IMG/VR virus record: IMGVR_UViG_3300036828_000667
Span: 49,839 to 113,838 of that record
DNA: 64,000 nt
From: a virus
Strand: one strand, 5' to 3'
The notes under the pieces are model-generated. The model had not been told where the DNA came from, searched no databases, and worked only from the letters and a program-made list of their open reading frames with translations. Made by a program: the position numbers and the translations under genes. Positions 71 to 18,510 of the stretch are shown piece by piece. The first letter of the stretch is position 1; each line of letters starts with the position of its first letter.

Positions 71-140
71 AATTGTGCGGTTTGGCCTGCAGCGGAGCGG
101 ATAGGCTAGGTTCGGATAGGCAAGGAAAGGCGTGGTATGA
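71..140 (-). ncRNA. Pentamer-coded guide-like unit U1 (NNN-CC periods)
   Basis: Plus strand reads ggttt ggcct gcagc ggagc ggata ggcta ggttc ggata ggcaa ggaaa ggcgt ggtat. The minus strand ends in the shared ACCGCACAATT handle and has its own promoter at 151-179. Confidence 0.75.
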
Positions 141-150
141 ACAATCACTC

Positions 151-179
151 CCTTAGCCTAGCTCACAAAAGCTGTCAAG
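151..179 (-). promoter_or_regulatory. Sigma70-type promoter driving U1
   Basis: CTTGAC-N17-CTAAGG on the minus strand, about 10 nt before the unit. Confidence 0.6.
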
Positions 180-189
180 GTTCTTTTCG

Positions 190-714
190 ATGTACTTACC
201 ACCTTGGGTGAAGGTCGACATGATTGCACTGAAAAATAGAAAACGGTTATCACAGTTGGTCAGGATGCTAAGTTCTGGCCATCAAGGTGAAGCAATGGCA
301 GCCAGAGACGCTGTTCAAAAAATCTGTTCTTTTAACGATCTAGCAGATTTGATCGAGAGTGGTAGTGATTTTAAAAAAGCAGAATTGCAGTTCGTGTACG
401 ACTCAGGACATGAGGATGGATTCAAAAAAGGTTTTGAAAAAGGGCTTCAAGAAGGAAAACTCGGTAGTAATAGCTCACGTCCTCCTCCCAGTTCTCATAA
501 GAAGGGCGACATTTTCTTCGACATTGGCGATAAACCTGACATAATTAAAGAAAAGATACAATTTTGTCAAAAGCATAAAGATAGACTCAGAAAAGATAGG
601 GAAAAAGAATTCATCGCCAATATAGTTAATTGGACCACGGTTTTAAATAGACCTCTAACTCCAGGTCAAGAGAACTGGCTAAACGATATATACGCCAGAC
701 TAGGGGGTAAATAA
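190..714 (+). CDS. Hypothetical phage protein (GF..G repeat region)
   Basis: 174-aa ORF, first of a tightly packed plus-strand run; true start may be at 220. Confidence 0.65.
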   Translation: MYLPPWVKVDMIALKNRKRLSQLVRMLSSGHQGEAMAARDAVQKICSFNDLADLIESGSDFKKAELQFVYDSGHEDGFKKGFEKGLQEGKLGSNSSRPPPSSHKKGDIFFDIGDKPDIIKEKIQFCQKHKDRLRKDREKEFIANIVNWTTVLNRPLTPGQENWLNDIYARLGGK

Positions 715-715
715 T

Positions 716-901
716 ATGAAAACAATTACTACAAATGACGCACTTGATCTCACTCGTAAAAGAGCCTACGAGCTAATAGAAGAACACACACTTTCAATAC
801 CTTACAGTGAGCTTATACCCACAGAACAACTAGTAAGTCGTGTACTCATGGAACTAGTAGCTAAGTACTTAAAACAGGAACTGGGGAGGACTCCTAAATG
901 A
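716..901 (+). CDS. Hypothetical protein
   Basis: Abuts neighbours, overlapping stop/start with next ORF. Confidence 0.6.
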   Translation: MKTITTNDALDLTRKRAYELIEEHTLSIPYSELIPTEQLVSRVLMELVAKYLKQELGRTPK

Positions 902-1230
902 AGCTAGAGAAAGTCATATCAGAAGCCGTCGAGAACATCCTTACCAATAACTTCGAAATTATTGATAAGCAAATAGTCAGACTTGTAGAGAACGAAGTGA
1001 TGAAGGCCCTAGAACAACTTCTTAAGGATAGGATAAGAACTAAGGTAATAGAGATCATCGAAGAACATAGCCAAAGGATCATTGAGAGGTCCCAAGAAAT
1101 ACTTCTAGTATACGAAGGTGGGGATTCTGATCTCAAAGAGGTAAATAACGTAGCCGAAAAACATCTAGACCAAGTTGAGGCTGATATGAGAAATAAAGTA
1201 CAAAGAAAAAAGGGAACTACAGAGGAGTGA
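898..1230 (+). CDS. Hypothetical helical protein
   Basis: GGAGGA RBS, overlaps upstream ORF. Confidence 0.65.
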   Translation: MKLEKVISEAVENILTNNFEIIDKQIVRLVENEVMKALEQLLKDRIRTKVIEIIEEHSQRIIERSQEILLVYEGGDSDLKEVNNVAEKHLDQVEADMRNKVQRKKGTTEE

Positions 1231-1233
1231 CCC

Positions 1234-1473
1234 ATGCCTATGGGACCTGACGACCATCTGGTTGAAACAATCAAGAACGTCCTCTGGAAAGATGAAGAAT
1301 TACTGGATAGGGCTATTCATAAGATAATAGAAAAGAGAATACATTTCATACTAGAACAGCACATAAACAATGGTTTGTCATCTAGACATATTTCAGAAGT
1401 TCTAGATGAATACATAACTTACCATATCAAAAGAATTCTCAGTTCGACTTTGGAACTGGAGGGAAAGGAGTAG
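1234..1473 (+). CDS. Hypothetical protein
   Basis: GAGGAG RBS, operon packing. Confidence 0.6.
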   Translation: MPMGPDDHLVETIKNVLWKDEELLDRAIHKIIEKRIHFILEQHINNGLSSRHISEVLDEYITYHIKRILSSTLELEGKE

Positions 1474-1559
1474 TGGTTCACGATTTGGTCTTTTTGCCAT
1501 TATTTAAACAGTAGGGAGGTCTAGATGTTGGCCGGCCCCTTTGGTAGAGTAGAGGCGAT

Positions 1560-2033
1560 ATGACTATTTACACTATCTACCATGTTCCTAATATAAAAGT
1601 AGGAGCAACCGATAATTTAAAAACTAGAATGGCTAGATACAAGTCTAGATACAAGGAGGTTGAGATAGAAATACTCTTGAAAATGAGATTCGAACAAGTA
1701 CCAGAATATGCAAGATGGTATATAGTAGGAACTTATGAATGGATATTTGCTGATATGTATGGATACCCTAGAGGTTTTCATTACTATATCAGCAGATATA
1801 GTAATAGAGTAAAACAAAGTCCATATAGCACTTTAGAACAAATTAAGTCTAATTACGGGAAACAACATGCAAATGATTACTTTAATCAAATTACTGTAAC
1901 AAACGAAACACTATGGAAATTCCTATCGTTGCTTTTAAATCAACAAAGTTACATAGAGAGACTTGTCAAAGAGATATTCCCAAATTCTTCTCCTCAATCC
2001 TTTCCTCTGGCACTCTTTCTCTTCACCAGCTAG
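1560..2033 (+). CDS. GIY-YIG-like nuclease-related protein (paralog of 49846-50550)
   Basis: IYHVPNIKVGAT.NLK.R...Y and EW.FAD.YGY.RG.HY match IYHIPGVKVGCT.NLK.R and EW.WAD.LGY.RG.HY in 49846-50550. Confidence 0.5.
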   Translation: MTIYTIYHVPNIKVGATDNLKTRMARYKSRYKEVEIEILLKMRFEQVPEYARWYIVGTYEWIFADMYGYPRGFHYYISRYSNRVKQSPYSTLEQIKSNYGKQHANDYFNQITVTNETLWKFLSLLLNQQSYIERLVKEIFPNSSPQSFPLALFLFTS

Positions 2034-2539
2034 TTAAATCACCAGTTAGTTAAGTCAGTAAAAGACGAGGGGAGTATGAGGGGAGTTTTTCAATAGTTTG
2101 TCAATTCTACTTAGGTATAGGTTTATATCACACTATGTTACAAACTGTAAGAATGGGATATACTTTAGACACGACAAAAAGCCCCATTAGACTATGTCTA
2201 GGGGTTTATGGTCATTTGGGGGTTGTTTTTAGGATGTAAGGAGGTGCTGTTGTGGATAGCCTCTTGGTTTTATCAGGCGCCTGATAAAATTCCCTGGATT
2301 ACCTGCGGTGCACCACCGTAACCCAGTATGGTTAGGAGAATAGCTTCCCCCTGGAATACAGGGGCCTGCTCGTCTATTAAAGATCCACGGGCCAGACCGT
2401 CAGTCGCTGGATTTTTCTCACCGTGGTAGCAGCCATGGCAGTCGCCGTTAGGTCGGCCCCATGGCACCGCTGTAACTCGCGGGTAAACGCATCTTCCATA
2501 TTAGAAAACGAACTGCTAGTCAACATCACTTGGAGATAA

Positions 2540-2602
2540 AATTGTGCGGTATGGGATGCATGGGGCAGGTCCGGCAGGGTAAGCGTCGGGGTGGGGTGGA
2601 CA
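2540..2602 (-). ncRNA. Pentamer-coded guide-like unit U2
   Basis: 11 GG/GC-NNN periods on plus strand; minus strand ends ACCGCACAATT; promoter at 2609-2637. Confidence 0.7.
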
Positions 2603-2608
2603 AAGCTT

Positions 2609-2637
2609 CATTACTATCATTGCAATCCATTGTCAAG
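2609..2637 (-). promoter_or_regulatory. Sigma70-type promoter driving U2
   Basis: CTTGAC-N17-GTAATG on minus strand. Confidence 0.5.
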
Positions 2638-2682
2638 AAGTCTAAAATCAAGCCTCCCGTCCTCCCCTGGCTGGAGCATAGG

Positions 2683-2877
2683 ATGAAAAAAGGCCCATAT
2701 CGCAGAAGAACCCTTGTCAGAAAATACAGGTTTCATCCCTATGAGAATTTTGAGTCAGGTAAGGGATGGAACCTTCCCCATAACAGAAAAAGGGTAAAGA
2801 AACATCATGGTCCAGCACTAAATAAACTAGGTCAATTAAGACGTTTTTGGATTACTGTTACAAGAACATACAGATGA
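2683..2877 (+). CDS. Basic hypothetical protein (MKKGPYRR...)
   Basis: GGAG upstream of ATG 2683; the track ORF start at 2530 runs through U2 and is probably too long. Confidence 0.45.
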   Translation: MKKGPYRRRTLVRKYRFHPYENFESGKGWNLPHNRKRVKKHHGPALNKLGQLRRFWITVTRTYR

Positions 2878-3239
2878 AAGACCTTACCTATCTCGACAAA
2901 TACAGAATGCCTATCCCTGAGGTCTGCCTTGTAGGAAGTGGTACAGTCGACCTAAAGTTCAACGGAGCCTTTGCATTTGCCATAAAAGGTGTTAGTGTTG
3001 TGGTAATAGCAGGACGCGGTAAGGGATGGGATCACGTATCAGTCTCTTGTGAAAACAGAACTCCAACTTGGGAAGAAATGGAAACGGTCAAGAGGATGTT
3101 CTTCAAAGACGATGAAGTAGCCATGCAATTGCATGTAGCTGTTGAGGATCACATCAATATGCACCCTTATTGTCTTCATTTATGGCGCAGTTACAATAAG
3201 CTTAGGCCAATTCCACTTCCACCAAAAGGATTCGTGTAA
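2847..3239 (+). CDS. Conserved phage protein (GWDHVSVS/PTWEEM/HP.CLHLW family)
   Basis: Recognisable widespread phage motif set; likely start ATG 2874. Confidence 0.8.
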   Translation: MDYCYKNIQMKDLTYLDKYRMPIPEVCLVGSGTVDLKFNGAFAFAIKGVSVVVIAGRGKGWDHVSVSCENRTPTWEEMETVKRMFFKDDEVAMQLHVAVEDHINMHPYCLHLWRSYNKLRPIPLPPKGFV

Positions 3240-3493
3240 TGAAACGAGCAGATTTCGTTAGAGCCTACGCAAATCGTTCTGGACTATCAGATAAGTGGGC
3301 AAACATAGGGTTGATAGATAGACATGATGGCTGGGTATTTGTAGCTCTGCCTTGTGTATGTGGTGAAGATGGTTGTCAGGGATGGGCCATGCTCTCAGCT
3401 GAGCAAGTCTTACACCACTTACAATTCAATGCTCCTGATGGGCTACGTGAAGCCTATATGAAATCTGTTGAAGACGAGGAAGCAAAGACATAG
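3239..3493 (+). CDS. Hypothetical protein (C.CG...C.GW)
   Basis: Overlapping stop/start, Cys motif. Confidence 0.65.
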   Translation: MKRADFVRAYANRSGLSDKWANIGLIDRHDGWVFVALPCVCGEDGCQGWAMLSAEQVLHHLQFNAPDGLREAYMKSVEDEEAKT

Positions 3494-3505
3494 GCATGAA
3501 TTGAT

Positions 3506-3775
3506 ATGAAGTATAGGCATTACAAACTACCGCAAAGAGGATATAGACACGACTGGAATGAAGCCAGAAGAATTCACGTATTTCTTCTAAGATGTGAAGG
3601 ATTGTCATATGGAGAAATTGCATTACGTCTTGGTGTAACCAGACAAGCAGCTAGAGAAATGTATCGTAGAGCAGCCCATATGTTAATGTGGGCATGGCGA
3701 CATATACTACAACCTCATACAATGATAGACCCAGAGTGTAGACTAGAGGCAGAGGAACATGAGAGCGACGAATAA
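3506..3775 (+). CDS. HTH DNA-binding protein (sigma region-4-like)
   Basis: EGLSYGEIALRLGVTRQAARE helix-turn-helix. Confidence 0.7.
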   Translation: MKYRHYKLPQRGYRHDWNEARRIHVFLLRCEGLSYGEIALRLGVTRQAAREMYRRAAHMLMWAWRHILQPHTMIDPECRLEAEEHESDE

Positions 3776-3974
3776 CCGTGACTTCCACCCAGTACCGATT
3801 TTAGGTGGAGATCACTGTCCGAAGTGTGGTAACATCATGCAAAGGTACACTCATAACCCAAAGTGGAAGCCTCTCCCTGGCCGTGGCTTCTACAAACACT
3901 GGGATCGGTGCATAGACTGTCGGCGATATTACAATCCAGCTGATGCCTATGTTAAAGGAAGTAAAGATGAGTGA
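3759..3974 (+). CDS. Small zinc-ribbon protein
   Basis: CPKC...CIDC. Confidence 0.6.
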   Translation: MRATNNRDFHPVPILGGDHCPKCGNIMQRYTHNPKWKPLPGRGFYKHWDRCIDCRRYYNPADAYVKGSKDE

Positions 3975-4155
3975 TGATTGTAAAAAGCGTCAACTTGCAA
4001 TGCTCATGATTGATGAAATAGAAAAATCATTGGCACGTGGCACTAAACATTACAACAAGAGTGGGAAGTTGCTAAAGACACCTAAGGCTGTCTTAGAATG
4101 CTTACTTAAAGACGGAAGTGTTGAACTCAAGTATAGGAAAGAGAAGGATGAATAG
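3943..4155 (+). CDS. Hypothetical protein
   Basis: Packed ORF, likely start at MSDD. Confidence 0.55.
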   Translation: MPMLKEVKMSDDCKKRQLAMLMIDEIEKSLARGTKHYNKSGKLLKTPKAVLECLLKDGSVELKYRKEKDE

Positions 4156-4360
4156 TGTAGTCAAATTACTGATAGAAATAGCTGGGGAGGTTGGAAGTGC
4201 TGTTGTGTTTGTAGCTGGTCTAAGAGCCTTAGCACTTTCTGTAGTTACAGAAGTAACCTCAACTTCCCCAGAGGAACGTGGTAAGATAAATAATCTGATA
4301 ATCAAAGCAATGGTGTTTATCGCAATTGCTTTTTCATTTCTCATACATACAAGACTATAG
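4118..4360 (+). CDS. Small membrane protein
   Basis: Two hydrophobic segments. Confidence 0.55.
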   Translation: MLNSSIGKRRMNSVVKLLIEIAGEVGSAVVFVAGLRALALSVVTEVTSTSPEERGKINNLIIKAMVFIAIAFSFLIHTRL

Positions 4361-4368
4361 GAGTCGAA

Positions 4369-4749
4369 ATGAAGCTAGTTGGATGTGTGGTTCTCTTATC
4401 GGTAGTCTTCTCCCCAGTTGCCTATTCTGAATTTGTCCCTGGTAATGTGTTTATTGAAAGCTGTAACAACCCTAGTCCTGAACGTCAGGCAGCTTGTATA
4501 GGTTTTACGGCAGGGGTTACCGATAGCTATCTCAGGTCTGGTCAATTTTGCTTACCACCAAATGTTACTCCAAAAGAGATTTCAGATTTCACGAAGTACT
4601 ACATCAACAAAACTGTTTCAATCCGCAATCAATCAGCCCTCATGATGGTGCTGTATGCATTGAAATCACGGTGGCCGTGTGTTAATAGTGGACCACGGAT
4701 GGTCTTCCAACTACCTCCCCAGTTCCAGTTTCAATTCCGTGGGTTCTAA
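4369..4749 (+). CDS. Rap1a/Tai-like secreted immunity-family protein
   Basis: Signal peptide, GN.F...C...C.G+..GV.D, FC.P, and WPC ending. Confidence 0.7.
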   Translation: MKLVGCVVLLSVVFSPVAYSEFVPGNVFIESCNNPSPERQAACIGFTAGVTDSYLRSGQFCLPPNVTPKEISDFTKYYINKTVSIRNQSALMMVLYALKSRWPCVNSGPRMVFQLPPQFQFQFRGF

Positions 4750-4761
4750 AGGAACAGTACG

Positions 4762-5025
4762 ATGATGACAAAAATCTACCTGATCGACCCGGGGGCATCA
4801 GACGGTTATCCTGGTCTTGTAAAAGAAATTGTCAGAGAGAACATCGAAGCGTTCGATATTGTCGAGTACACGAATTTATATGGAAAACATGGGTATTACG
4901 TGTTTGACGGCATGGTAAAAGATGATATCGTTTACAGACGGGTGATTCGCGTCGCTAGAATTGCAGAAAAGAAGGAACAAAAGAATGGCCAAGGCGGTCA
5001 GACGACCTCCGAAGGGACACCATGA
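4762..5025 (+). CDS. Hypothetical protein
   Basis: Packed ORF with RBS. Confidence 0.55.
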   Translation: MMTKIYLIDPGASDGYPGLVKEIVRENIEAFDIVEYTNLYGKHGYYVFDGMVKDDIVYRRVIRVARIAEKKEQKNGQGGQTTSEGTP

Positions 5026-5224
5026 TGGCAGTGGAATAAAACTTGCTGTCAAATTTACACCGAAGCTTTTTAAAAGAATAAACGAACGGGCAACCAAACA
5101 TAACAAAAACTTTTCAGAAATCGTGAATGAGACTTGTGAATGTGGTCTATTATGCTTGGAAGAATCGGAGCGGGACGAGCCTAATTATAAGACAGTGGTG
5201 AGCCAACATGAAGATCGGGCCTAG
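4961..5224 (+). CDS. Possible ribbon-helix-helix protein
   Basis: LAVKFTPKLFKRINERA...NFSEIV pattern. Confidence 0.45.
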   Translation: MQKRRNKRMAKAVRRPPKGHHDGSGIKLAVKFTPKLFKRINERATKHNKNFSEIVNETCECGLLCLEESERDEPNYKTVVSQHEDRA

Positions 5225-5374
5225 GTTCTAAAGCTTCCTGGACAGCCTAGGTCTGACGGTGGAGGAGTACAGGACTATACCTTAGTGCCCCCAGTACTCC
5301 TCCACTACACTATAAGGAATCCCATAGCAAATGACGAAGGGGGTTCCTAAACTGTAACACTAGGAGTAACTAAC

Positions 5375-5965
5375 ATGATGAAGCAAACCTCGTTGGCAAG
5401 GCATATAACCGTAGAGATTCCTAGTGAGAACTCAGCTGATGTTGACTTTCTTCATGAGCTAGAAGAAGCTCATGACCACGACAATTTGAAAGACGTAGGT
5501 GCTGGTGTCGAGAAAGCATTCAAGGACAGAGTTGAAAAAGAGTTCTCAGGACAAGACATTACACCAAAGACACGGGCGTCCATCACAGACTTCTGTATAT
5601 ATTTAATGTCGATTGCAAAATTTTACGGTTATGATCTTTTACTAGGTGGGTTTATTACTACTGTTCACGAAGACATGTTTTCTGTACGAACTCAACCTAC
5701 CAAAGGGATTACGGCTCTCATAGAGTCAACGTTCACGTATTTTGACGATGAGGGAAACTATAAACTCACTGCCAATGGTTTCATGAGAAGGGATTGGGCA
5801 ACTGCCCCAGACGATCCAGTCAGCCGACGTAATCAGATCCTGAGAGATAACAACGATATTTTTCCCGGATTGCAATACAGTAATGCCAACACCAATAAGC
5901 TCCATATTCATATAGAAATAACAGGACAGTTCCCGCTATTAATCCTCCCAGTTACCTACCAATAA
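5375..5965 (+). CDS. Hypothetical protein; C-terminal domain duplicated in the next gene
   Basis: AGGAG RBS; FTYF...G...L.A.G.MR.DWAT motif. Confidence 0.7.
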   Translation: MMKQTSLARHITVEIPSENSADVDFLHELEEAHDHDNLKDVGAGVEKAFKDRVEKEFSGQDITPKTRASITDFCIYLMSIAKFYGYDLLLGGFITTVHEDMFSVRTQPTKGITALIESTFTYFDDEGNYKLTANGFMRRDWATAPDDPVSRRNQILRDNNDIFPGLQYSNANTNKLHIHIEITGQFPLLILPVTYQ

Positions 5966-5999
5966 ATTATAGGGGCTGGGAAGATGGGGGGATTATTGT

Positions 6000-6260
6000 A
6001 TGTCCAATGTAATCAACTTACCTATAATGGTAAGAGCGAGATTCTCTTATTTTAATACCAAAGGTATATTTCAATTATCAGCAGACGGTCATATGAGGCA
6101 AGATTGGGCTACTCACTCCAATCTGCCACGGCCTAGACGTACCCAAATCATCCAAGACAATAAAGGAATGCCAGGAATGCCTGGAAGGGCTTCCGCGTAT
6201 TTCATACATATTGTCACACAGGATAAGAAACGAACTCTCGTACTTCCGGAGACACCTTGA
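6000..6260 (+). CDS. Paralog of the C-terminal domain of 5375-5965
   Basis: FSYFNTKGIFQLSADGHMRQDWAT vs FTYFDDEGNYKLTANGFMRRDWAT. Confidence 0.7.
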   Translation: MSNVINLPIMVRARFSYFNTKGIFQLSADGHMRQDWATHSNLPRPRRTQIIQDNKGMPGMPGRASAYFIHIVTQDKKRTLVLPETP

Positions 6261-6320
6261 ACAGGGAGGAAAATCAGAACTCAACATGAACAACAAGCAG
6301 AAAACCGTAATCACCTATAG

Positions 6321-6599
6321 ATGAAATACTCTAAGGATCGGAGACAAACCATGGATCACGCTGAACTTCTTGCTAACCTCAATACAGCACTAGACAACTT
6401 CGTGAACAGTAGTGATGGAACTAAGCAAGAACTGAAAGATGATCTCGAAGACTTTCGAGACGATATAGACGGACGTATCATGGCCCTGGAAGAAGAAATC
6501 GAGGAGGAGCAAGGCGAAGATACAGATGAAGATGAAGGAGATGACGGTGAGGAAGCGCCGATTGTAGAAACGGGAGAAATGGGAGAAGAGCCGAAGTAA
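6321..6599 (+). CDS. Highly acidic small protein
   Basis: D/E-rich; GGAG before ATG 6351. Confidence 0.7.
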   Translation: MKYSKDRRQTMDHAELLANLNTALDNFVNSSDGTKQELKDDLEDFRDDIDGRIMALEEEIEEEQGEDTDEDEGDDGEEAPIVETGEMGEEPK

Positions 6600-6607
6600 T
6601 AGAGATT

Positions 6608-6645
6608 AAGTCATCCTCTGTTTTTGAAATGACAGAGGATGACTT
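6608..6645. terminator. Stem-loop between a convergent gene and unit U3
   Basis: AAGTCATCCTCTGT...ACAGAGGATGACTT 14-bp inverted repeat. Confidence 0.7.
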
Positions 6646-6704
6646 GTGCGGTTTGGTTAGGAATGCAGTGGCTCGGCAGGGTTCGCTTCGGTTTGGTATG
6701 GTTC
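6644..6704 (-). ncRNA. Pentamer-coded guide-like unit U3
   Basis: 11 GG/GC-NNN periods on plus strand, ACCGCACAA handle, 3' hairpin, promoter at 6716-6744. Confidence 0.75.
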
Positions 6705-6715
6705 GAACATGCGGG

Positions 6716-6744
6716 ACGTAGCAGAACTTGACCGTCTTGTCAAA
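6716..6744 (-). promoter_or_regulatory. Sigma70-type promoter driving U3
   Basis: TTTGAC-N17-CTACGT on minus strand. Confidence 0.65.
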
Positions 6745-6754
6745 TGGGTGCAAA

Positions 6755-7345
6755 ATGTCCAAGAAGTTCTCAATATCAGTGGACCATAATGCATTAAGGC
6801 AATTTCCGTTTCTGGATCGACTCCAGAAACAACAATTCCCCATTTCAACCCTCAATGAAGTTATGTACGTTCTTGAAAATAGACCTGAAGGATTCAAAAT
6901 CGAGTTGGTTTATAGTGTATTGAAAGTGTCGTTAATTAACGTCAATAGAGACACCAATGACGACTACTTGGGATTGCCGAAGATTGAAGGTCAGTTGAAA
7001 GACCTGTGTGATGTGATCAGAGAGACCACGTCATATGGAACACGTGGGGGAGTCGACCCAAGGACACAAATATATTATAGTAGGAAGTCGTCTATTCTAC
7101 AGGGTAGTAACCTTAGTGATGATGCTCTGATAGCTCCTAATTATGTTTCTAATAGAGGTTTGAGAAAACGCCATCCTCTTGATCTTGTGTCCACAGAAGA
7201 GGTCGTTAAAAGAAGGGAACTTGCTAACCGACACTGGCAAGAACAGAAAAAAGAGCAACGAAGAAAACAACAGTCCAGTATCAACTCAAAAATCCGGAAT
7301 GCTCAGGACTTTTTGACAAGAAGCAATTTTGACAAGAAGCAATAA
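6755..7345 (+). CDS. Hypothetical protein; matched by unit U4
   Basis: Track ORF 6728-7345 with in-frame ATG at 6755. Confidence 0.7.
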   Translation: MSKKFSISVDHNALRQFPFLDRLQKQQFPISTLNEVMYVLENRPEGFKIELVYSVLKVSLINVNRDTNDDYLGLPKIEGQLKDLCDVIRETTSYGTRGGVDPRTQIYYSRKSSILQGSNLSDDALIAPNYVSNRGLRKRHPLDLVSTEEVVKRRELANRHWQEQKKEQRRKQQSSINSKIRNAQDFLTRSNFDKKQ

Positions 7346-7356
7346 TAATGTTAACC
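7328..7356 (+). promoter_or_regulatory. Sigma70-type promoter driving U4
   Basis: TTTGAC-N17-TTAACC(T). Confidence 0.55.
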
Positions 7357-7362
7357 TTCTTC

Positions 7363-7426: not shown

Positions 7427-7429
7427 CTA

Positions 7430-7460: not shown

Positions 7461-7483
7461 TTATTATTATTAGGAGGTTAGAG

Positions 7484-8080: not shown

Positions 8081-8091
8081 GGAGGTTAACA

Positions 8092-11063: not shown

Positions 11064-11064
11064 G

Positions 11065-11490: not shown

Positions 11491-11491
11491 A

Positions 11492-11773
11492 TTGGCAAAA
11501 GCAACAACGCGAGAACGTCAACCATTGACTAAGCGTGCGTTGCGTATTTATATAATAGTCAAACAGTACGGTCCCCCAGTAGGACTTCCTATGTCCGTAG
11601 TGGACATACAGAAATATATTCCAGAAATAACCGTTGATTGTATCAGTCCACGTATGCCAGAGCTTCGTGAAAAAAGATGGCTTCTGCGTATTGGAAAAGC
11701 ACCGCGTCCAAATCGAACTGGACGTTCGCAAAGCCAGTGGGTTTATAGAGTAATTAACGAGGATGAACTTTGA
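11492..11773 (+). CDS. Winged-helix-like DNA-binding protein
   Basis: ISPRMPELREK...R..RTGR....Y pattern. Confidence 0.6.
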   Translation: MAKATTRERQPLTKRALRIYIIVKQYGPPVGLPMSVVDIQKYIPEITVDCISPRMPELREKRWLLRIGKAPRPNRTGRSQSQWVYRVINEDEL

Positions 11774-11810
11774 GTGGCAACAGATGGACGTGTAGCTCAG
11801 CGGTAGCATC

Positions 11811-12338
11811 ATGGCAAAACACAATGAAGAAAATGATCTATGGTTCCTTAGCAAAATCGCAGATGGAACCATTTCTGTATCCGAAGACGGAGAGGTCTTC
11901 AACAACAAGACAGGTAGATATATAGGCGCTCAACAAGGAGCAGGTTACCTTAAGATTTCTATGGCAAAGAGAGTTGATGGAAAACTTGTTATTGTCCATA
12001 TGCAAATCCATAGGTTAGTATGGCTACATTTCAAAGGACCTATTCCTCAGGGACTAGAAGTCAATCACAAAGATTTAAACAAATCGAACCCACGATTGTC
12101 AAATCTAGATTTACAAACACCCAAAGGGAATGCTGAACATGCCACCTTAAATGGTGTTGACCGACGCTCAAAAACAGGAGGCCATAAAAACGCTAATGCC
12201 AAATTTACACGTGAACAAGTCGAGATGCTACGGAGACAATTCAAATCGAAAGAAACCACAGTTAAAGAAATAATGATAAACTATAGTGTTTCTAAGCCAG
12301 TTGTGTATTGGATGCTGGAAGGAAGGACCTATAAATAG
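11811..12338 (+). CDS. HNH homing endonuclease
   Basis: HRLVW..F.G.IP.GLEVNHKD.NK.N....NL. Confidence 0.9.
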   Translation: MAKHNEENDLWFLSKIADGTISVSEDGEVFNNKTGRYIGAQQGAGYLKISMAKRVDGKLVIVHMQIHRLVWLHFKGPIPQGLEVNHKDLNKSNPRLSNLDLQTPKGNAEHATLNGVDRRSKTGGHKNANAKFTREQVEMLRRQFKSKETTVKEIMINYSVSKPVVYWMLEGRTYK

Positions 12339-12363
12339 CTACTAACCTGTAGGATTTATAACA

Positions 12364-12693
12364 ATGGTAGAATTTGGAGCGTTCATTCGCAAAGAACGAG
12401 AGGCCAGAGATATTAGCTTACGAAAGATGGCCAAGAAGATTGGTGTAAGTGCAACCTATCTATCACAAGTGGAACTTGATAGGTTCCCACCACCAACTGA
12501 GGATAGGGTAAAGGCTATTGCCAAGATCATTGACTGTAATCCTGACTACCTACTGGCCAAAGCTGGACGGATCTCGACCGACATTTCCGACATCATTAAA
12601 CGTCGTCCGATCGAGCTTTCGATGCTTATTCGAGCCGCCAAGTACTTGAGTAACGATGACATTGCCCAATTGATTAATGCGGCGTCAGCGTAG
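12364..12693 (+). CDS. XRE-family HTH transcriptional regulator
   Basis: FGAFIRKERE...SLRKMA..IGVSATYLSQVE. Confidence 0.9.
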   Translation: MVEFGAFIRKEREARDISLRKMAKKIGVSATYLSQVELDRFPPPTEDRVKAIAKIIDCNPDYLLAKAGRISTDISDIIKRRPIELSMLIRAAKYLSNDDIAQLINAASA

Positions 12694-12787
12694 GAGCCTC
12701 ACTGGTAAGTCTTTTAGGCCTGGAGGCCCTACCACCTGGCCTGTCCATAATTCGCGTCAGTGGGCTTCCAACAAAGAGGAGAGGGTA

Positions 12788-12973
12788 ATGCGTTGCGATC
12801 GGTGTCAGGGAACAGGCTGGGATCGGGCAGGAGTACACCCTGTACTTGGGCCGCTCTTCGATTGCAACCATCCGTGTACTGAATGCGGCGGGTCAGGCAT
12901 CGCCCACTGTTGCGACGGCATCTGCGAACAGCCTTCAATTGACAAGTCTATAGATGACAAGCTAACATCTTGA
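12788..12973 (+). CDS. Small DnaJ-type zinc-finger protein
   Basis: CDRCQGTG...CTECGGSG; GGAGAGG RBS. Confidence 0.65.
   Translation: MRCDRCQGTGWDRAGVHPVLGPLFDCNHPCTECGGSGIAHCCDGICEQPSIDKSIDDKLTS
12938..12968 (+). promoter_or_regulatory. Sigma70-type promoter driving U5
   Basis: TTGACA-N18-TAACAT. Confidence 0.55.
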
Positions 12974-13046
12974 CGCCTACCGTACCACTCCGACGCCAAC
13001 CACACCGAGCCGGTCCATACCTTTCCAAACCAAACCACACTTTTTT
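12974..13046 (+). ncRNA. Pentamer-coded guide-like unit U5
   Basis: 13 periods ending ACCAAACCACAC-TTTTTT. Confidence 0.75.
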
Positions 13047-13224
13047 ATTACTACTAGATATTCAGGAAAGGCGAACATGAGAGGTTAGGTTAAACTAACT
13101 TCGTTCTTCCTTTAGCTCAGCTACAAACTTCTTAATCAGAGTTGTTAAGGTTGGAGTGTGCTTAGCTGGAAAGTTACCAGCAAGTACCTTGGCAATAGCA
13201 TACCGAATTACCTTAAACTCTTCC

Positions 13225-13476
13225 TCAGTTAGCTCCAACGTTATCACTAGGCACCTCGCCTTTCTTTATCACGCTAACCTTACTATCATCGATCTTCAGA
13301 GTAAACCTCTTATTATCCACAACTTCTCGCCATCTATTTTCCTCAATATAAGCACAGGCTTTAAGGTAGTCCGTCAAACAAAAAACATGAGTATGTATCT
13401 GTGACCAACACGGATGCTCACGGCATAAGTGTTCAATCTTGGCGGCTAACTCCCTGAGTGGTGATTGCATACCCAA
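13225..13476 (-). CDS. Hypothetical protein
   Basis: GGAGG near start, plausible composition. Confidence 0.5.
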   Translation of the reverse strand: MGMQSPLRELAAKIEHLCREHPCWSQIHTHVFCLTDYLKACAYIEENRWREVVDNKRFTLKIDDSKVSVIKKGEVPSDNVGAN

Positions 13477-13571
13477 CCTCCCTTTTGTGTGACCATAAAG
13501 TTACACTTAAATTGAATCTGATTCTGGGAATTGACCTGCCAAGGCTGATAGGCGAAAACTCATATTGCAAG

Positions 13572-13641
13572 GTCGAACCGCTGCCTTGCTTGCCAAACCG
13601 GGCCAAGCCGGCGCGGACCAAACCTCCGCACACCGCACAAT
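13572..13641 (+). ncRNA. Pentamer-coded guide-like unit U6
   Basis: 13 periods decoding to EALLKGKGGKSTA, the peptide encoded at 13756-13794. Confidence 0.9.
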
Positions 13642-13676
13642 GGGAGTAGTCAAATGGCTTGCAGACTACTCCCATT
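13639..13676 (+). terminator. Stem-loop 3' of U6
   Basis: AATGGGAGTAGTC...GACTACTCCCATT 13-bp stem. Confidence 0.65.
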
Positions 13677-13695
13677 AACACAGGAGTAAAACAAC

Positions 13696-14337
13696 ATGCT
13701 AATTTCAGTCACGATCTCCGGAATCCGACCTTTAATCCTCGACGCGTTTTCCGAGGAAGCGTTGCTTAAGGGGAAGGGAGGAAAGAGTACAGCCCAGCCC
13801 AAGGAACTGAGTCCCTTGGATCAAGCCAAGCGTAGGTTATACTATAATGGAGATGGTACCGACGTTCCTATATTCCCAGCAGACAACCTACTCAGCTGTA
13901 TCATCGCTGCCGGGCGGTTTATCAAGGTCGGGAAAAGGCAACTAACTACTCGCGACAGTACGACAGTAACTTCATTCCTACAGATATCAGAACTATATCT
14001 TCCCATTAGGTCGATAGATGGATGGCGAGTCGACTCCAGGAGCATCGTCAACCCGTCTACAAAAGGTCGTCACATATGCTACCGTCCCATCTTTGACGAC
14101 TGGGAGTTAGATTTCACGCTCGACATCGATACGAATGAAGCGAGCGACAGCTTGGTTAGACAGTTGATTGATAGAGCAGGTAGGTTTATCGGGATCGGGG
14201 TCATGCGGCCCGAAAGGAAGCGGCAGTATGGGCAATACGTGGTGCGCTGCTGGGATTGCCGTTCAGAACATGAAGAGCTTGACAACATACCAAAACTTGC
14301 TAAGAAAACTAAGACTAGATCGAAAGAACTAGTCTAA
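13696..14337 (+). CDS. Stand-alone RAMP / Cas7-like RNA-binding protein, candidate effector of the pentamer guides
   Basis: N-terminal strand ISGIRPLIL, PIFPADNLLSCI (cf. RAMP P.IPGSSLKG), C-terminal Gly-rich loop GIGVMRPERKRQYGQYVV; AGGAG RBS. Confidence 0.75.
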   Translation: MLISVTISGIRPLILDAFSEEALLKGKGGKSTAQPKELSPLDQAKRRLYYNGDGTDVPIFPADNLLSCIIAAGRFIKVGKRQLTTRDSTTVTSFLQISELYLPIRSIDGWRVDSRSIVNPSTKGRHICYRPIFDDWELDFTLDIDTNEASDSLVRQLIDRAGRFIGIGVMRPERKRQYGQYVVRCWDCRSEHEELDNIPKLAKKTKTRSKELV

Positions 14338-14467
14338 CACTGGTTCATCGCGGACCGTACCGGAGCGTGCCATGCCCGTCCCCGCCGAGCCCGACCAAAC
14401 CAGACCCAACCTACGCGGACCCAGCCTATCCTTAGCGTAGCACACCGCACAGTTAAGGCCAAAACCA

Positions 14468-14511
14468 GAAGGAAGGAGATACGGAAATGAAACCACGCAT
14501 CTCCTTCCTTC
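14468..14511 (+). terminator. Stem-loop 3' of unit A
   Basis: GAAGGAAGGAGAT...ATCTCCTTCCTTC. Confidence 0.6.
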
Positions 14512-15110
14512 AAACCCAAGTTTCGAACAATCCATGCCACTGCAAACCGCGCCAGCCCTATGCCTACCACTGTGAACCGCTCCACACCATTCTTTTATCA
14601 ATTATCAAGTCAACACTCCGAACCAGACCCCGCCTTACCCAACAGCACCCCACCAAACCGGACCGACCCACTCCAATGTGCACCTCAGCAGACCGAAGCA
14701 CACCATACTTTATCAATTGCCTTCCCGACCCGAGCTATGCCCAACCGACCCGACCCACTCCGGGCCGCACCCCTCCCTCCCATCCCGCAGCACACCATAC
14801 TTTATTTCATTACGACTCTCCGGCCCTACGCCAACCACACCAGCCCGGAGCGTGCCATACCGCACCATACTTTTATCATTTCAATGCGCACCGTCCCTCA
14901 CCGTGCCATCTCTCACCCGACCATACCATCCCTCCCCACCTCGGCCCGGACCCCGCCGATGCAAACCACACCATACTTTATCAATTTTCAGAACCATCCC
15001 GACCGTACCAGTGCGCGCCATTCCAATGCAGCCCTCGCCTCCGCATGTCAGGCCGCCCCGACCCATGCCGCACCAAACCACACTTTCTTTATCAACTAAG
15101 GAGAACCAGC

Positions 15111-15311
15111 ATGACCACACATCGTCCCACATTCGAAGACTGGCAGCTAGACTTCACTTTGGATTATAATGAAACTGAAATAGATGAAGGTACTATACGT
15201 AAGCTAATCGAAGTAGTAGCTGGAACGCACATAGGACTTGGCTCTATGCGCCCAGAACGACATGGACCCTATGGACAGTTTAAGATCAAGGAATGGACTC
15301 CACATTCTTAG
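15111..15311 (+). CDS. 66-aa truncated paralog of the RAMP protein C-terminus
   Basis: AAGGAG RBS; RPTFEDWQLDFTLD...IGLGSMRPERHGPYGQF aligns with RPIFDDWELDFTLD...IGIGVMRPERKRQYGQY. Confidence 0.8.
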   Translation: MTTHRPTFEDWQLDFTLDYNETEIDEGTIRKLIEVVAGTHIGLGSMRPERHGPYGQFKIKEWTPHS

Positions 15312-15598
15312 TCTTATCCATCTCTGCTTACCGTAGCCCTCATCACCGCACCCGTGAGCACCGACCCATGCCTGAGCCTACCTCAGCATACCCAACCGCA
15401 GCAACCCGGTGCGAACCAAACCACACTATTTTTTATACAATTTCAACTTACCGTCCCGGCCCGAGCCAGTCCATCGTGCGCCGACCCGTCGCTCCCCATA
15501 CCGCACTATACTTTATTCATTACCAACCATGCCATACCATGCCATTCCGGAACGCTGCCCTCCGGTCCACACCACACTTTCTTTAGGAGTTTAACCAG

Positions 15599-15844
15599 AT
15601 GGCAAAGGTAACTGGTATTGACGGTAAAAGCTTTATCAAAGGTCAACGTTTTGGTAAGCTAGTTGCGGTACGTCCACTAGGCTGGAGTAGTGACCGCAGC
15701 TGGTGTTGGCTATGTAAGTGTGATTGCGGCAATGAGACTATCTTAAGTGCTAACAGACTTCGAAGTGGTGAAGTTCAAGCTTGTGGATACGCTGTAACTA
15801 TAAAATCAGACACAAATGAGGAACACTGTAACGGACAGATATAA
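15599..15844 (+). CDS. N-terminal fragment of an HNH/AP2-type endonuclease family protein
   Basis: GQRFGKLV...W.CKCDCG......LRSG...CG; no nuclease domain. Confidence 0.65.
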   Translation: MAKVTGIDGKSFIKGQRFGKLVAVRPLGWSSDRSWCWLCKCDCGNETILSANRLRSGEVQACGYAVTIKSDTNEEHCNGQI

Positions 15845-16158
15845 TGACAAAGCCTACCATTACTGTCAAACAGAATCCCAATGAAGGTGACGTAGCTGAC
15901 TTCGTAGTTTGTCACCGTGTTTCTGTGCTACCTATCCCGTACGTGTCAGCTGAGATCCAACATTGCTCCAGATGTAACGAAAGGATATGGGTTGCAAACA
16001 CCTCTCCATCTAAGCCTCCTAAACTATGCTGGGAATGTTCAATTCCTCTAATTGCCAAAGACGACGATACAAGAATAATGATTACCGAACGGCAACGGGC
16101 AGAGGTTCAGAAGTATATGCAACTAGTCCAGAAACTCCAGGAGAAAAATGAAAAGTGA
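15844..16158 (+). CDS. Zinc-binding hypothetical protein
   Basis: CSRC...CWEC. Confidence 0.65.
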   Translation: MTKPTITVKQNPNEGDVADFVVCHRVSVLPIPYVSAEIQHCSRCNERIWVANTSPSKPPKLCWECSIPLIAKDDDTRIMITERQRAEVQKYMQLVQKLQEKNEK

Positions 16159-16408
16159 ACGTCATAAGATGCTCGAAATAGCCATGAGGTATCTCGACAG
16201 ACTATTCAACGGTAATGATAAAACAATAGAAAAAAGCACTGGAATTGTATTACTTACGTTCTCCTTTACTGACGAAGATGGTAATCATTGCGGTGATGAC
16301 AATGGGACTATCATCACCAATGGCATAGAAAGGGAACACATTGTAGGCATTATGGAAGCAATGCTAGAAAGACTGAAGGCAGACGATATACTTTTCAGAC
16401 GACATTAA
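16148..16408 (+). CDS. Hypothetical protein, paralog of the 7484-8080 C-terminal half
   Basis: LDRLFNG...TGIVLLTF.F...ITNG. Confidence 0.7.
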   Translation: MKSERHKMLEIAMRYLDRLFNGNDKTIEKSTGIVLLTFSFTDEDGNHCGDDNGTIITNGIEREHIVGIMEAMLERLKADDILFRRH

Positions 16409-16414
16409 AGACCT

Positions 16415-16969
16415 TTAAGTAGCATCATAGGCAAACTCACCAGCCAAACGTTTGGAAGCTTCCTCATACGCCTGAACCGCCTCTTCTACTGTGTTAAAGG
16501 TACCGATCTGAACGTCTTTATACATATGTTTTATTCTAGCCTCCCATTTTCCTGTGCTTTTCTTGTACCTTACTCCCTTAAAACCACTTGTATTATTTTT
16601 GAACATAGGACGATTGTAGCAATTCTGCTGTGTCGTCGCTGGACGAAGATTAGTCCATATATTGTTACCTGGATTTAGATCCTTATGATCTATCTCATAA
16701 TTAGGCCATTCTCCTGTCACATATAACCATATAATACGATGTACTTGATACATTCTGCCATTAACTTTTACCTGTATACGTCCTCCTTTCTTAATAGAAC
16801 CCGCCGTACTTCCAATAACAATCCTCCAGTTTAACGCCTCCTTCCATGTAAGTATACCAGTTTCAGGATCATAGTTAAAAATCTGCCTAACAAACTCAGC
16901 TGTTAGACTATTGTTATAGATACGAGTCCCCATTTTTACGCTCCTGTAGTGGCAGCCTTTACTGCCCAA
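16415..16969 (-). CDS. HNH endonuclease with C-terminal AP2 domain (likely start 16933)
   Basis: YDPETG, HRIIW, IDHKD....NN...NLR, NNTSGFKGV..W.A.I. Confidence 0.9.
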   Translation of the reverse strand: MGSKGCHYRSVKMGTRIYNNSLTAEFVRQIFNYDPETGILTWKEALNWRIVIGSTAGSIKKGGRIQVKVNGRMYQVHRIIWLYVTGEWPNYEIDHKDLNPGNNIWTNLRPATTQQNCYNRPMFKNNTSGFKGVRYKKSTGKWEARIKHMYKDVQIGTFNTVEEAVQAYEEASKRLAGEFAYDAT

Positions 16970-17139
16970 TGAACAGCCTCTTCATAAGCGGTTTGTGCTA
17001 AGGACGCTAACCTAGCATCTTTCGATTTCAGAGTTTCACATAGGTCGATCAACTCAGCAGACTTTTGCTTGATCTCATCAACTATAGTATCTGCACTTGG
17101 ATTAAATGCAGTCCGAACTCGTTGTTCACCGATTGTCAT
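16936..17139 (-). CDS. Acb2/Tad1-like helical-hairpin protein (possible nucleotide-signal sponge)
   Basis: R.ASLAQT.YEEA..WAVKA motif; AGGAG RBS. Confidence 0.55.
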   Translation of the reverse strand: MTIGEQRVRTAFNPSADTIVDEIKQKSAELIDLCETLKSKDARLASLAQTAYEEAVHWAVKAATTGA

Positions 17140-17150
17140 AGTACTCTCCT

Positions 17151-17181
17151 CTTGACAAGTTCACCTTGTTACACCTACGAT
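17151..17181 (+). promoter_or_regulatory. Sigma70-type promoter driving unit K
   Basis: CTTGACA-N18-TACGAT. Confidence 0.65.
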
Positions 17182-17186
17182 GATTA

Positions 17187-17246
17187 CTCGAACCGACCCC
17201 GTCCAGGCCACTCCTCCGCCCACCGACGCAAACCGCACAATTTTAT
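17187..17246 (+). ncRNA. Pentamer-coded guide-like unit K
   Basis: 10 periods ending ACCGCACAATTTT. Confidence 0.75.
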
Positions 17247-17361
17247 ATCCTACCATTTTCCACTACTTAGTTGGCTAGCAATAAGTCAAGCGTATAATTC
17301 TAAGACCCTACAAGACATACAAATGGGAACGTCCTAAAACCCGCAACAGAAAGTCCCGATC

Positions 17362-17529
17362 ATGCTAAGCATGGGCGACAAGGTAATAAAGGACACTGGC
17401 GACTATACTTTTTCGGGTGTCGTCATCGCAGTATTCCTAAAACGCAATGGTACTGCTGTAAGGTATGTAGTAGAGAACGAAGAAGGTATCTGCCACATAT
17501 TCAACGACCGCCAAATTAGAAAGGTTTAA
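17362..17529 (+). CDS. 55-aa SH3-like phage protein, not in the ORF track
   Basis: MLSMGDKVIKDTGDYTFSGVVIAVFLKRNGTAVRYVVENEEGICHIFNDRQIRKV, translated by hand. Confidence 0.65.
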   Translation: MLSMGDKVIKDTGDYTFSGVVIAVFLKRNGTAVRYVVENEEGICHIFNDRQIRKV

Positions 17530-17534
17530 TTTAT

Positions 17535-17777
17535 GTGAAGAAGTGTGACTATGCACATCAAGAAAGGTACAGAAGAGTGACAAAGGCAGAACTGACTTGT
17601 AGCGTATGCGGCAAACGTTATGAAACTCTAGGAGACTATGGGGACGACGTTGACTGCCAAATGATCTGTTTTCGCTGCTTCGAACAAGCTGATGCCATCT
17701 CTGCTCAGCAGAATCGCTGGCCTGATGGTCGAGACTTTCGTTACTTACGAGATATGAAAAAGCATCATCAAAAGTAG
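17535..17777 (+). CDS. Zinc-binding hypothetical protein
   Basis: CSVC...CFRC. Confidence 0.55.
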   Translation: MKKCDYAHQERYRRVTKAELTCSVCGKRYETLGDYGDDVDCQMICFRCFEQADAISAQQNRWPDGRDFRYLRDMKKHHQK

Positions 17778-17812
17778 ACCACACAATTACCATAATCAGA
17801 TTATACAAACTA

Positions 17813-17915
17813 ACCATACCGAGCCGAGCCGTTGCCGCACCATACTTTATCAATTTGATTCCCACCACACCTCCCCGGACCTATCCAGCCCCCTGCAAAC
17901 CGCACCATACTTACT
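17813..17915 (+). ncRNA. Two short pentamer units: L (17813-17855, with a 1-nt phase slip) and M (17859-17915)
   Basis: Same period and ACCATACTT tail as the main array. Confidence 0.7.
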
Positions 17916-17928
17916 TGTAATATAAATA

Positions 17929-18237
17929 TCAGTGAGTGTAGCTAGACTGACCATGCCCATCAGCATCCAATTCTTCACTAATTTCGTTGATCTCAATAGA
18001 CAGCATTTTACCAAACTCACTAAAAGCTTCCGGCCTATCCTCAGTCGAGGTAGCTCCAACAATTGCTCTAGCAACTACTTCACAAAGCACAGAACTAAGT
18101 TCCTCATAGTCAATTTGATCTCCTGGACTACCGTCCGGGTTTCCATTACGGCGATAAAAATCCGTAATGACTTCATTGAAAAAACAGCTAAGACATTCGC
18201 GTTCCCTACCGTCATCCGCTTTGATCTTATGTGCCAT
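17929..18237 (-). CDS. Acidic hypothetical protein
   Basis: AGGAGG RBS. Confidence 0.7.
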   Translation of the reverse strand: MAHKIKADDGRERECLSCFFNEVITDFYRRNGNPDGSPGDQIDYEELSSVLCEVVARAIVGATSTEDRPEAFSEFGKMLSIEINEISEELDADGHGQSSYTH

Positions 18238-18321
18238 ATTTAAACCTCCTACCTTTCACAGAACCGCTATACTTTATCCATAATCCACACTTAGTGATTT
18301 AGAAGTCAGCCAAGAGTTCTC

Positions 18322-18457
18322 TGCGTACCGACTCTTTCCGGACCGGACTGTACCACACTATACCATACCTCACCTACCCATACCTCGCCTAACCACGCCT
18401 TTGCGACCCGGAGCGTGCCTCGCCTACCCAATGCGACCCTGACCACAGCACACAATT
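18322..18457 (+). ncRNA. Pentamer-coded guide-like unit N (26 periods)
   Basis: Decoded reverse complement reads VVQSLYDTPSNVYDMYDIIVTPPKST, matching the terminase C-terminus. Confidence 0.9.
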
Positions 18458-18477
18458 ATAGGACTAAAAGACATGAG

Positions 18478-18510
18478 GTGGTGACTTGTATGGTTTGGGC
18501 AAGTCACCAC
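18478..18510. terminator. Stem-loop between unit N and the terminase stop
   Basis: GTGGTGACTTG...CAAGTCACCAC. Confidence 0.65.

Follow-up and report, generated by a model that had tools for sequence, protein, structure and literature searches.

Systems of the VIPR (Viral Interference Programmable Repeat) type combine the protein Vipr with vrRNAs that consist of 9-16 YNNGG repeats plus a 3' tail, and the resulting complexes bind double-stranded DNA, where the NN bases are read and every third target base is skipped (bioRxiv 10.64898/2026.04.26.720920). One Vipr protomer is bound per repeat (bioRxiv 10.64898/2026.04.26.720927), targets are wobble-aligned, and solo vrRNAs are often aimed at the vipr genes of rivals (10.64898/2026.10.15.759431). 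Other repeat forms have been reported, namely the NNNGG, YNNNG and NNNNG variants mentioned in 10.64898/2026.04.26.720920 and the non-canonical cores GAC/NN, CAC/NN, WGT/NN and TGH/NN (10.64898/2026.10.21.760802). Here, we describe a locus of this family in the IMG/VR virus record IMGVR_UViG_3300036828_000667, within a window of 64,000 nucleotides (nt; positions 49,839 to 113,838) that forms the right-hand 64 kb of this linear record of 113,838 bp, estimated to be 77% complete. The locus consists of a vipr gene (window positions 13696-14337, plus strand) and of pentamer-periodic units placed around it.

We consider, with a probability of roughly 60%, that this locus is the VIPR system of a ~114-kb phage of lytic type, formed by a stand-alone Vipr of the RAMP family and about 32 vrRNA genes, in which the RNA would be made from the C-rich strand (hereafter the CC strand), the guides would copy whole codons and the targets would be the alleles of rival phages. 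As VIPR was published in the 2026 preprints, the kind of system is already known and no new kind is proposed. The first-pass annotation of the window had mentioned a report of this sort, and the report does exist, as the two bioRxiv preprints of April 2026 cited above. Judged from sequence, the locus would nevertheless be distinct from published VIPR. Its core is cytosine-phased and probably transcribed as the C-rich strand, the residues that contact the bases are changed, the guides would copy complete codons, and an unusually large dispersed set of guides is linked to recoded resident genes.

The Vipr protein and its pentamer units

The protein encoded at 13696-14337 (P0001, 213 aa) carries the G-loop GIGVMRP and the thumb motif YRPIFDDW. 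As a single sequence it matched PDB 36pp_D, "SUSP1 Vipr protein", with an E-value of 4.7e-5 (phmmer), and a profile of 21 homologues matched the same chain at 7.4e-15 over residues 16-184 of 213; this is the one solved structure matched by the P0001 sequence. PHROG 4652 matches P0001 at E 2e-16, nothing significant was found in Pfam, and 95 metagenomic homologues were retrieved. The AlphaFold2 model (pLDDT 80, pTM 0.74) was compared with the PDB using Foldseek, and the best 29 distinct matches were all Cas7, Csm3 or Cmr4 chains with a probability of 1.00. Together with the profile match, this result bears out the initial description of the gene as RAMP/Cas7-like. The thumb and G-loop of SUSP1 Vipr align with the YRPIFDDW and GIGVMRP motifs, and P0001 is a Vipr, i.e., a minimal single-RRM RAMP homologous to SUSP1 Vipr.

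In the SUSP1 protein, G1 of the repeat is contacted by H17 and D177 and G2 by R138 and W178, Y3 lies in a pyrimidine-only pocket, and the D177 alanine mutant is dead (10.64898/2026.04.26.720927). The residues at the H17, D177 and W178 positions covary with the tract across the family: SUSP1 has H, D and W with a GGY tract, a clade of ~30% identity has H, D and F with GGY or GGN, and a clade of ~40% identity has N, D and F or Y with GGC. P0001 belongs to a third group, the V/M clade, all members of which have D16, V169 and M170 at these positions and whose tracts read CC on the vipr strand. Both R138 and R179 of SUSP1 are retained in this clade, as R130 and R171. An initial argument that the loss of D177 proves the loss of guanine reading was downgraded, because D16 may compensate.

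The units were recovered with a phase-aware scan for runs of (CC|GC)+NNN, using 20 shuffles of the genome as the null. The scan found 17 tracts in the window, confined to positions 76-18452 and absent from 19-64 kb, against zero or one tract per shuffle. After splitting one merged tract and adding the short units 15451-15505, 17814-17844 and 18323-18362, 21 units were counted, ten in an array behind vipr (14350-15576) and eleven dispersed (starting at 76, 2545, 6647, 7364, 12975, 13578, 17193, 17814, 17865, 18323 and 18363), in line with the ten and ten announced in the first-pass annotation. Eleven further units lie upstream of the window on the same record, giving a total of ~32 guides over 52 kb. 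The units measure ~30-100 nt, shorter than the 135 nt initially given as their upper length, and those flanking vipr (one upstream and ten downstream) have 6-20 pentamers each. In the 318 pentamers counted, the CC strand carries a fixed pair of C (78%) or G (20%) followed by C (98%), and the other three positions are all variable. The opposite strand has a G-[G/C]-N core with 59% pyrimidine at the Y position, and not the GGY of VIPR. A related 3' handle had also been described, and the units indeed end in related constant pentamers (GCACA, CCGCA, CCACA or CCATA), the entropy of the variable positions being 1.02 bits in the last three pentamers vs 1.81 in the first three.

The unit just upstream of vipr (13578-13637, +) follows a TTGACC at 13531-13536 and precedes a 12-bp hairpin (13640-13675) located before the vipr ribosome-binding site. 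Behind the gene, the first array unit, of 20 pentamers (14350-14449, +), is followed by a hairpin at 14467-14512. Units 2-7 (14532-14591, 14618-14707, 14720-14799, 14812-14869, 14886-14975 and 14998-15082, all +) are connected by linkers of the CCATA-CTTTATCAATT type, and units 8-10 are located at 15326-15425, 15451-15505 and 15527-15576 (+). Among the dispersed units, three have their CC strand on the minus strand: 76-135, with TTGACA at 178-173; 2545-2599, with a promoter-like TTGACA (2636-2631), 17-nt spacer and TAATGA; and 6647-6701, which has TTGACA at 6743-6738 and, after the handle, a hairpin of 14 bp (~6605-6645). The others are on the plus strand. Unit 7364-7423 has TTGACA (7329-7334), a 17-nt spacer and TAACCT, and ends at an intrinsic terminator (7429-7461) followed by TTATTATTATT; units 12975-13039 and 17193-17237 have the promoters TTGACA-18-TAACAT (12939-12968) and TTGACA-18-TACGAT (17152-17181), respectively; and the remaining ones are the short pair 17814-17844 and 17865-17909 and the pair 18323-18362 and 18363-18452. 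The -35 element of unit 7364 is doubled by an exact 16-bp tandem duplication (TTTTGACAAGAAGCAA twice, 7311-7343).

Apart from the window, the V/M clade was found in 22 loci, three from IMG/VR and 19 from metagenomes; no Vipr of this type was found when searching one representative genome per prokaryote species. The first-pass annotation had proposed to look for 5-nt periodicity beside homologous genes, and CC tracts are present in 20 of these 22 loci. In all 20 they lie on the vipr strand, most of them abutting the ribosome-binding site or the stop codon of vipr.

The strand of the guide RNA

Several signals favor the CC strand as the RNA. The motif TTGAC starts 33-52 nt before the first pentamer on the CC strand in 14 of 15 lone or cluster-leading units and on the other strand in one of 15, an enrichment with a binomial P of ~2e-21 given 320 occurrences of the motif in the genome. 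It is followed at 17-18 nt spacing by TA-starting hexamers (TACTAT, TAACCT, TAACAT, TACGAT and others). In a promoter and terminator scan, two of the CC-strand unit promoters were among the top calls and the strongest terminator was directly behind unit 7364. In the upstream half of the genome, the unit mini-genes are oriented opposite to the surrounding minus-strand genes and, therefore, their promoters serve nothing else.

The 3' sides of the units point in the same direction. A hairpin of 12-15 bp stands 3' of six units on the CC strand, and in the hairpins behind two units upstream of the window (u-9108 and u-2512) and in that of the related locus L076 there are G-U pairs, for which the opposite strand would have C-A mismatches. 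The CC-strand units finish with two or three constant pentamers and then a hairpin or a T-rich stretch, which counts as a 3' tail only if the CC strand is the RNA. This 3' location of the constant pentamers matches the placement of the constant GGCAA pentamers and T-runs in the canonical relatives L018, L034 and L054. All units adjoining vipr are on the vipr strand, and in two related loci the order of elements is explicit: promoter-unit-vipr-terminator in L082, and promoter (TTGAAT-16-TATATT)-unit followed further on by vipr-unit-terminator in L076. The same layout of promoter, tract and tail is present in the SUSP1 reference locus, where the tract is on the gene strand behind a TTGACA-17-TATACT promoter. 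From these promoter, terminator and layout signals, the RNA is quite probably the C-rich strand, and the initial proposal that the CC strand is transcribed holds as far as sequence can show.

In such an arrangement, a lone unit would be a mini-gene that runs from a sigma-70-type promoter through the variable pentamers to two or three constant ones (SCRCA) and a hairpin or U-rich end, while the units adjacent to vipr would most simply be carried on the vipr transcript. By homology with the SUSP1 complex, each RNA would bear a row of Vipr protomers, one to a pentamer, that grip the fixed bases and offer the variable ones to double-stranded DNA, so that the bound gene would be silenced. The first-pass annotation had pictured the same one subunit per pentamer, with the fixed bases held and the variable ones presented, which is what has been shown for VIPR (10.64898/2026.04.26.720927). 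In the published register, the pentamer would read N1-[C/G]2-C3-N4-N5, where C3 would replace the Y of GGY (already a C in the ~40%-identity clade) and the former G1, having lost its contacts, would now be free. Since this free base continues the two paired bases, each pentamer would spell a whole target codon. The register on the CC strand and the residue changes are coherent but short of proof, as the new Asp16 could still read guanine.

The main alternative is that the same VIPR uses the G-rich strand, with the constant pentamers (UGCGG UGUGC) first, the NNNGG repeats after them, a -10-like element directly upstream, and the units near vipr antisense to it. We regard this possibility as unlikely, though it deserves serious consideration, and the following points speak for it and weigh against a CC-strand RNA. 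Every characterised VIPR RNA is G-rich and GGY/NN is the sole core shown experimentally. The NNNG[G/C] of the GG strand, where the position-1 G is 98% conserved, fits the NNNGG given as an alternative consensus in 10.64898/2026.04.26.720920. On the same strand, the -10-like hexamers TGATAAAGT, TAAAAT and TATAAT precede many units, within AT-rich linkers; in most of the units lacking a hairpin, they are separated from the first G pentamer by 2-8 nt. The terminator-like hairpins of this genome, five on the CC side vs three on the other, are not decisive. The change from H17/D177 to D16/V169 could merely shift a carboxylate inside the same guanine pocket. Finally, in L054 (9780-9996) a canonical GGC/NN vrRNA, preceded by TAAAGT, lies opposite the vipr gene and carries on its own strand a 3' GGCAAGGCAAGG, a hairpin and a T-run. 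Therefore, the orientation of the vrRNA relative to vipr is not fixed in the family, and the identity of RNA strand and gene strand was dropped as a family-wide argument.

Nevertheless, a G-strand RNA would leave much of the locus unaccounted for. It would have no -35 element, TTGAC occurring on that side in one of 15 units vs 14 of 15 on the CC side, and in six units the required -10 site is occupied by the hairpin. The high-GC relatives L001 and L076 do not have a -10-like hexamer on the G strand. Such RNAs would have no conserved 3' element or terminator to end them and would bear their constant pentamers at the 5' end, unlike the canonical relatives. On the protein side, the D177 needed in SUSP1 is a Val in the V/M clade, and the purine-tolerant third position of a G-strand repeat clashes with the pyrimidine-only Y3 pocket.

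What the guides spell and the resident genes

The guides were decoded by dropping the fixed pair and translating the CC-strand triplets. Unit 14350 then spells IGVGVMRPERKRQYGQYLV, the G-loop of Vipr, with 17 of 19 residues as in the resident gene; against the resident vipr, codon positions 1-2 match at 34/38 and third positions at 2/19. Unit 13578 spells EALLKGKGGKS, corresponding to Vipr residues 21-31. Two antisense cases concern other genes: unit 76 spells AAY.SYK, in agreement with the last part of the gene located immediately upstream of the window, and unit 18363-18452 spells QSLYDTPSNVY, a silently changed copy of the C-terminus encoded by the neighboring gene of 641 aa (18515-20440, minus strand). 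More generally, for eight of the ~17 dispersed guides the best match in the own genome at codon positions 1-2 (76-93%) is located at most 400 nt away, for which we estimate a chance of ~1e-13. Counts of position 1-2 matches between guides and resident genes were 26/32, 18/22, 13/14, 21/24, 18/22, 34/38 and 26/34. The eight adjacent matches are inside real open reading frames, six in sense and two in antisense, and align to the resident coding sequence with a 3-nt period that places the third base on the wobble position. These resident sequences are presumed to be relatives of the targets.

The third base of the triplet is not random with respect to the code. Where positions 1-2 agree in split codon boxes, it leaves the amino acid unchanged 41 times out of 44, vs about half expected with random third bases (estimated P ~8e-10). 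Across loci, its GC content follows the GC content at third codon positions, GC3 (r = 0.53, P = 0.036), and in L001, a locus of 63% GC, it reaches 0.77 vs 0.52 and 0.47 at the other two variable positions. Because the third base keeps the amino acid and its GC follows GC3, all three variable bases appear to carry target-derived information, so the initial claim of target information at all three positions holds to the extent that this can be read from the coding content. At the same time, guide and resident gene share the same codon more rarely than saturation predicts, at 13 of 37 two-fold sites (P 0.05) and 4 of 32 four-fold sites (P 0.07). The few mismatches at positions 1-2 are created by switches between the codon families of Leu, Arg and Ser. 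These patterns hint that the third base is read, which would give three paired bases per protomer, and suggest that silent recoding lets the resident allele escape from a guide aimed at rival alleles.

We therefore infer a scheme in which many guides would be aimed at the alleles of the phage's own genes, vipr included, that are present in closely related rival phages. As the resident copy beside the guide is silently recoded and would escape, guide and immune allele would travel as a linked pair. Guides directed at vipr recur in the V/M clade: in L090 (531-560 and 612-736), the first downstream unit spells EDSFREAAE, vs EDSLREAAE in the C-terminal tail of its own Vipr. In one array of L001 (8888-9047 and 9330-9464), two guides spell the same peptide, MIVR(A/V)PTF, with different synonymous third bases, as if covering two alleles of one target site. 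The strongest form of the proposal would be a re-tooled code, with a C-rich RNA (N-C-C for G-G-Y), three contiguous target bases per protomer and guides that are gene fragments with CC after every codon, in which dozens of linked pairs of guide and recoded immune allele would exclude the alleles of co-infecting relatives gene by gene. Taken as a whole, we hold this form to be tentative, with the odds somewhat against it.

Two points count against the interpretation as a whole. Five exact-pattern scans of IMG/VR with codon positions 1-2 specified, four made with guides of this phage and one with a guide of L001, returned no natural target, and wobble mismatches exceed expectation with no more than modest significance (P 0.05 and 0.07, as above). 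In addition, none of the 22 other V/M vipr alleles was matched in full by a guide, and the best match was to the gene of the phage itself. For the array guides that follow the first one, the genome of the phage contains no match and, therefore, they are presumably aimed at foreign DNA.

These results could also be explained if the guides matching neighboring genes were self-regulators, following the two-base rule with the wobble skipped, so that matches of 76-93% would suffice for feedback or timing repression of the own vipr and other early genes. Indeed, most of the position 1-2 matches are above 80%, the threshold at which the VIPR preprint accepted natural targets, and the G-loop guide is closer to the own allele (ERKRQYGQY) than to any of the 22 others. 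However, the position 1-2 mismatches arise from synonymous switches of Leu, Arg and Ser codon families and the third bases differ above chance, which has the look of selection for escape. Nor is there a reason why a third base that is skipped should remain faithful to the codon. Published VIPR systems show no self-targeting, and self scores are below rival scores in them. Self-regulation therefore seems improbable to us, more so than a G-strand RNA. A far more remote idea, that the tracts are not guides for the V/M Vipr but decoy or sponge RNAs complementary to the G-rich vrRNAs of rivals, or protein-binding arrays at the DNA level, could draw on the CC tracts being the complement of the canonical core and on the known redirection of phage VIPR by satellite-encoded solo vrRNAs, but the units decode to protein-coding sequence and not to other vrRNAs, and CC tracts strictly co-occur with V/M vipr (in the 20 tract-bearing loci of the 22), G-type tracts being found only beside the second, D/Y-type vipr of L086.

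Genomic context and relation to known systems

The record encodes phage replication and lysis genes, including a DnaB-like helicase, a family-A DNA polymerase, a UvsX-like recombinase, SbcC and an endolysin. Its best matches among GenBank phages (megablast, tblastn) are Gordonia phage proteins of ~26% identity and a 30%-identical DNA polymerase of Xanthomonas phage phiXF1. Across the whole record, we obtained no matches to Cas1, Cas2 or reverse transcriptase and found no CRISPR-like tandem array, which extends to the entire record what had been noted for the window. The repeat-spacer array and the adaptation or other effector genes that define class 1 CRISPR-Cas are thus missing, and the Cas7-like fold is the sole shared feature. 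Rfam gave no match in window positions 1-19000 at E 0.1; therefore, there is no ribozyme between the units by this search. The open reading frames neighboring vipr have no Pfam match. No gene other than vipr is common to the window and the 22 V/M-clade loci, and the clade has no conserved accessory (vap) gene.

A small gene with its own ribosome-binding site (P0002, 66 aa, 15111-15311, +) is located inside the guide array and corresponds to the C-terminal third of Vipr, containing the thumb strand, a helix and the G-loop GLGSMRP, with 49% identity to P0001 residues 129-186 (E 2e-20). No homologue of similar length was found among 5.8 billion proteins, and this protein may be a remnant or else serve as a filament cap or an inhibitor. 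The longer open reading frame of 274 codons that runs through the array (14487-15311) was treated as spurious apart from these last 66 codons. Further from vipr, a Cro/CI-type HTH_3 protein is encoded ~1 kb upstream (12364-12693, +), which is not conserved beside vipr in the related loci, and a free-standing gene of homing-endonuclease type with HNH_3 and AP2 domains lies 0.8 kb downstream of the array (16415-16969, minus strand).

The VIPR code, in which GGY is held, NN read and one base skipped, is under development as a new logic for programmable DNA binding, only months after its discovery. If our interpretation is true, a natural clade with another fixed core and a three-base reading shows that this code can be re-engineered, and an orthogonal second channel would be possible. 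Indeed, the metagenome contig of L086 (1-2582) carries both types on one strand: a V/M-type vipr with CC tracts on either side, and a D/Y-type vipr with canonical GGYNN repeats directly behind it, possibly two orthogonal VIPR systems side by side. For eight genes of one phage, a guide stands beside a recoded allele. This pattern suggests that near-identical phages compete at the level of alleles by means of VIPR, beyond its use against satellites and prophages, and such pairs would be ready-made natural targets and escapes for work on specificity. Even with the other strand as the RNA, the locus would still be a rich example, with ~32 guides and self-escape by synonymous recoding.

The closest characterised systems are the type II VIPR of Escherichia phage SUSP1 and of a Pseudomonas fulva prophage (10.64898/2026.04.26.720920 and 10.64898/2026.04.26.720927). 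As in these systems, the locus has a homologous, phage-borne Vipr without other cas genes, and units of 5-nt repeats (~8-20 per unit) with one unit upstream of vipr and an array downstream, apparently organized as promoter, tract and constant 3' part. Shared too would be the 3-nt target period phased with codons and guides aimed at rival vipr genes. In contrast, the promoter-strand core is N-[C/G]-C here and G-G-Y there, other residues stand at the H17, D177 and W178 positions, a vap gene is missing, codon information appears to be present in the third base and ~32 guides are spread over 52 kb. The pseudoknot tail of SUSP1 would be replaced by the constant pentamers and the hairpin or U-rich end, no pseudoknot search having been made here. 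The VIPR arrays with non-canonical cores and the NNNGG, YNNNG and NNNNG variants also combine divergent Vipr-like proteins with 5-nt repeats whose fixed part departs from GGY; in the accessible text of those reports, no CC core is named, and neither strand evidence nor a codon-level reading is given. The V/M clade may correspond to the NNNGG variant as seen from the opposite strand. The solo vrRNAs of Enterobacteriaceae phages and satellites (10.64898/2026.10.15.759431) resemble the dispersed units in standing alone away from vipr, with some directed against the vipr of rivals, in their wobble alignment and in self-match scores below rival-match scores. Unlike their carriers, however, the phage described here keeps its vipr together with ~20 solo units, eight of them at most 400 nt from a silently recoded resident homologue of the presumed target.

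More distantly, the Cas7 backbone of class 1 effectors (Csm3, Cmr4 and the type VII Cas7) shares the RRM core, the thumb, the G-loop, the filament on the guide and the periodic base flipping, the structural likeness being expressed by the Foldseek probability of 1.00. It differs in having a 6-nt instead of a 5-nt period and in belonging to systems with a repeat-spacer array, Cas1, Cas2, Cas5 and Cas6, none of which occur here, where the guides are hard-wired in the genome. The pairing of guide and recoded allele has its nearest parallel in T4-like phages, in which a free-standing homing endonuclease that attacks rival alleles sits beside the immune resident allele and the pair is co-inherited. 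In the locus described here, no cleavage is implied, and the agent linked to the immune allele would instead be a guide RNA for a DNA-binding silencer.

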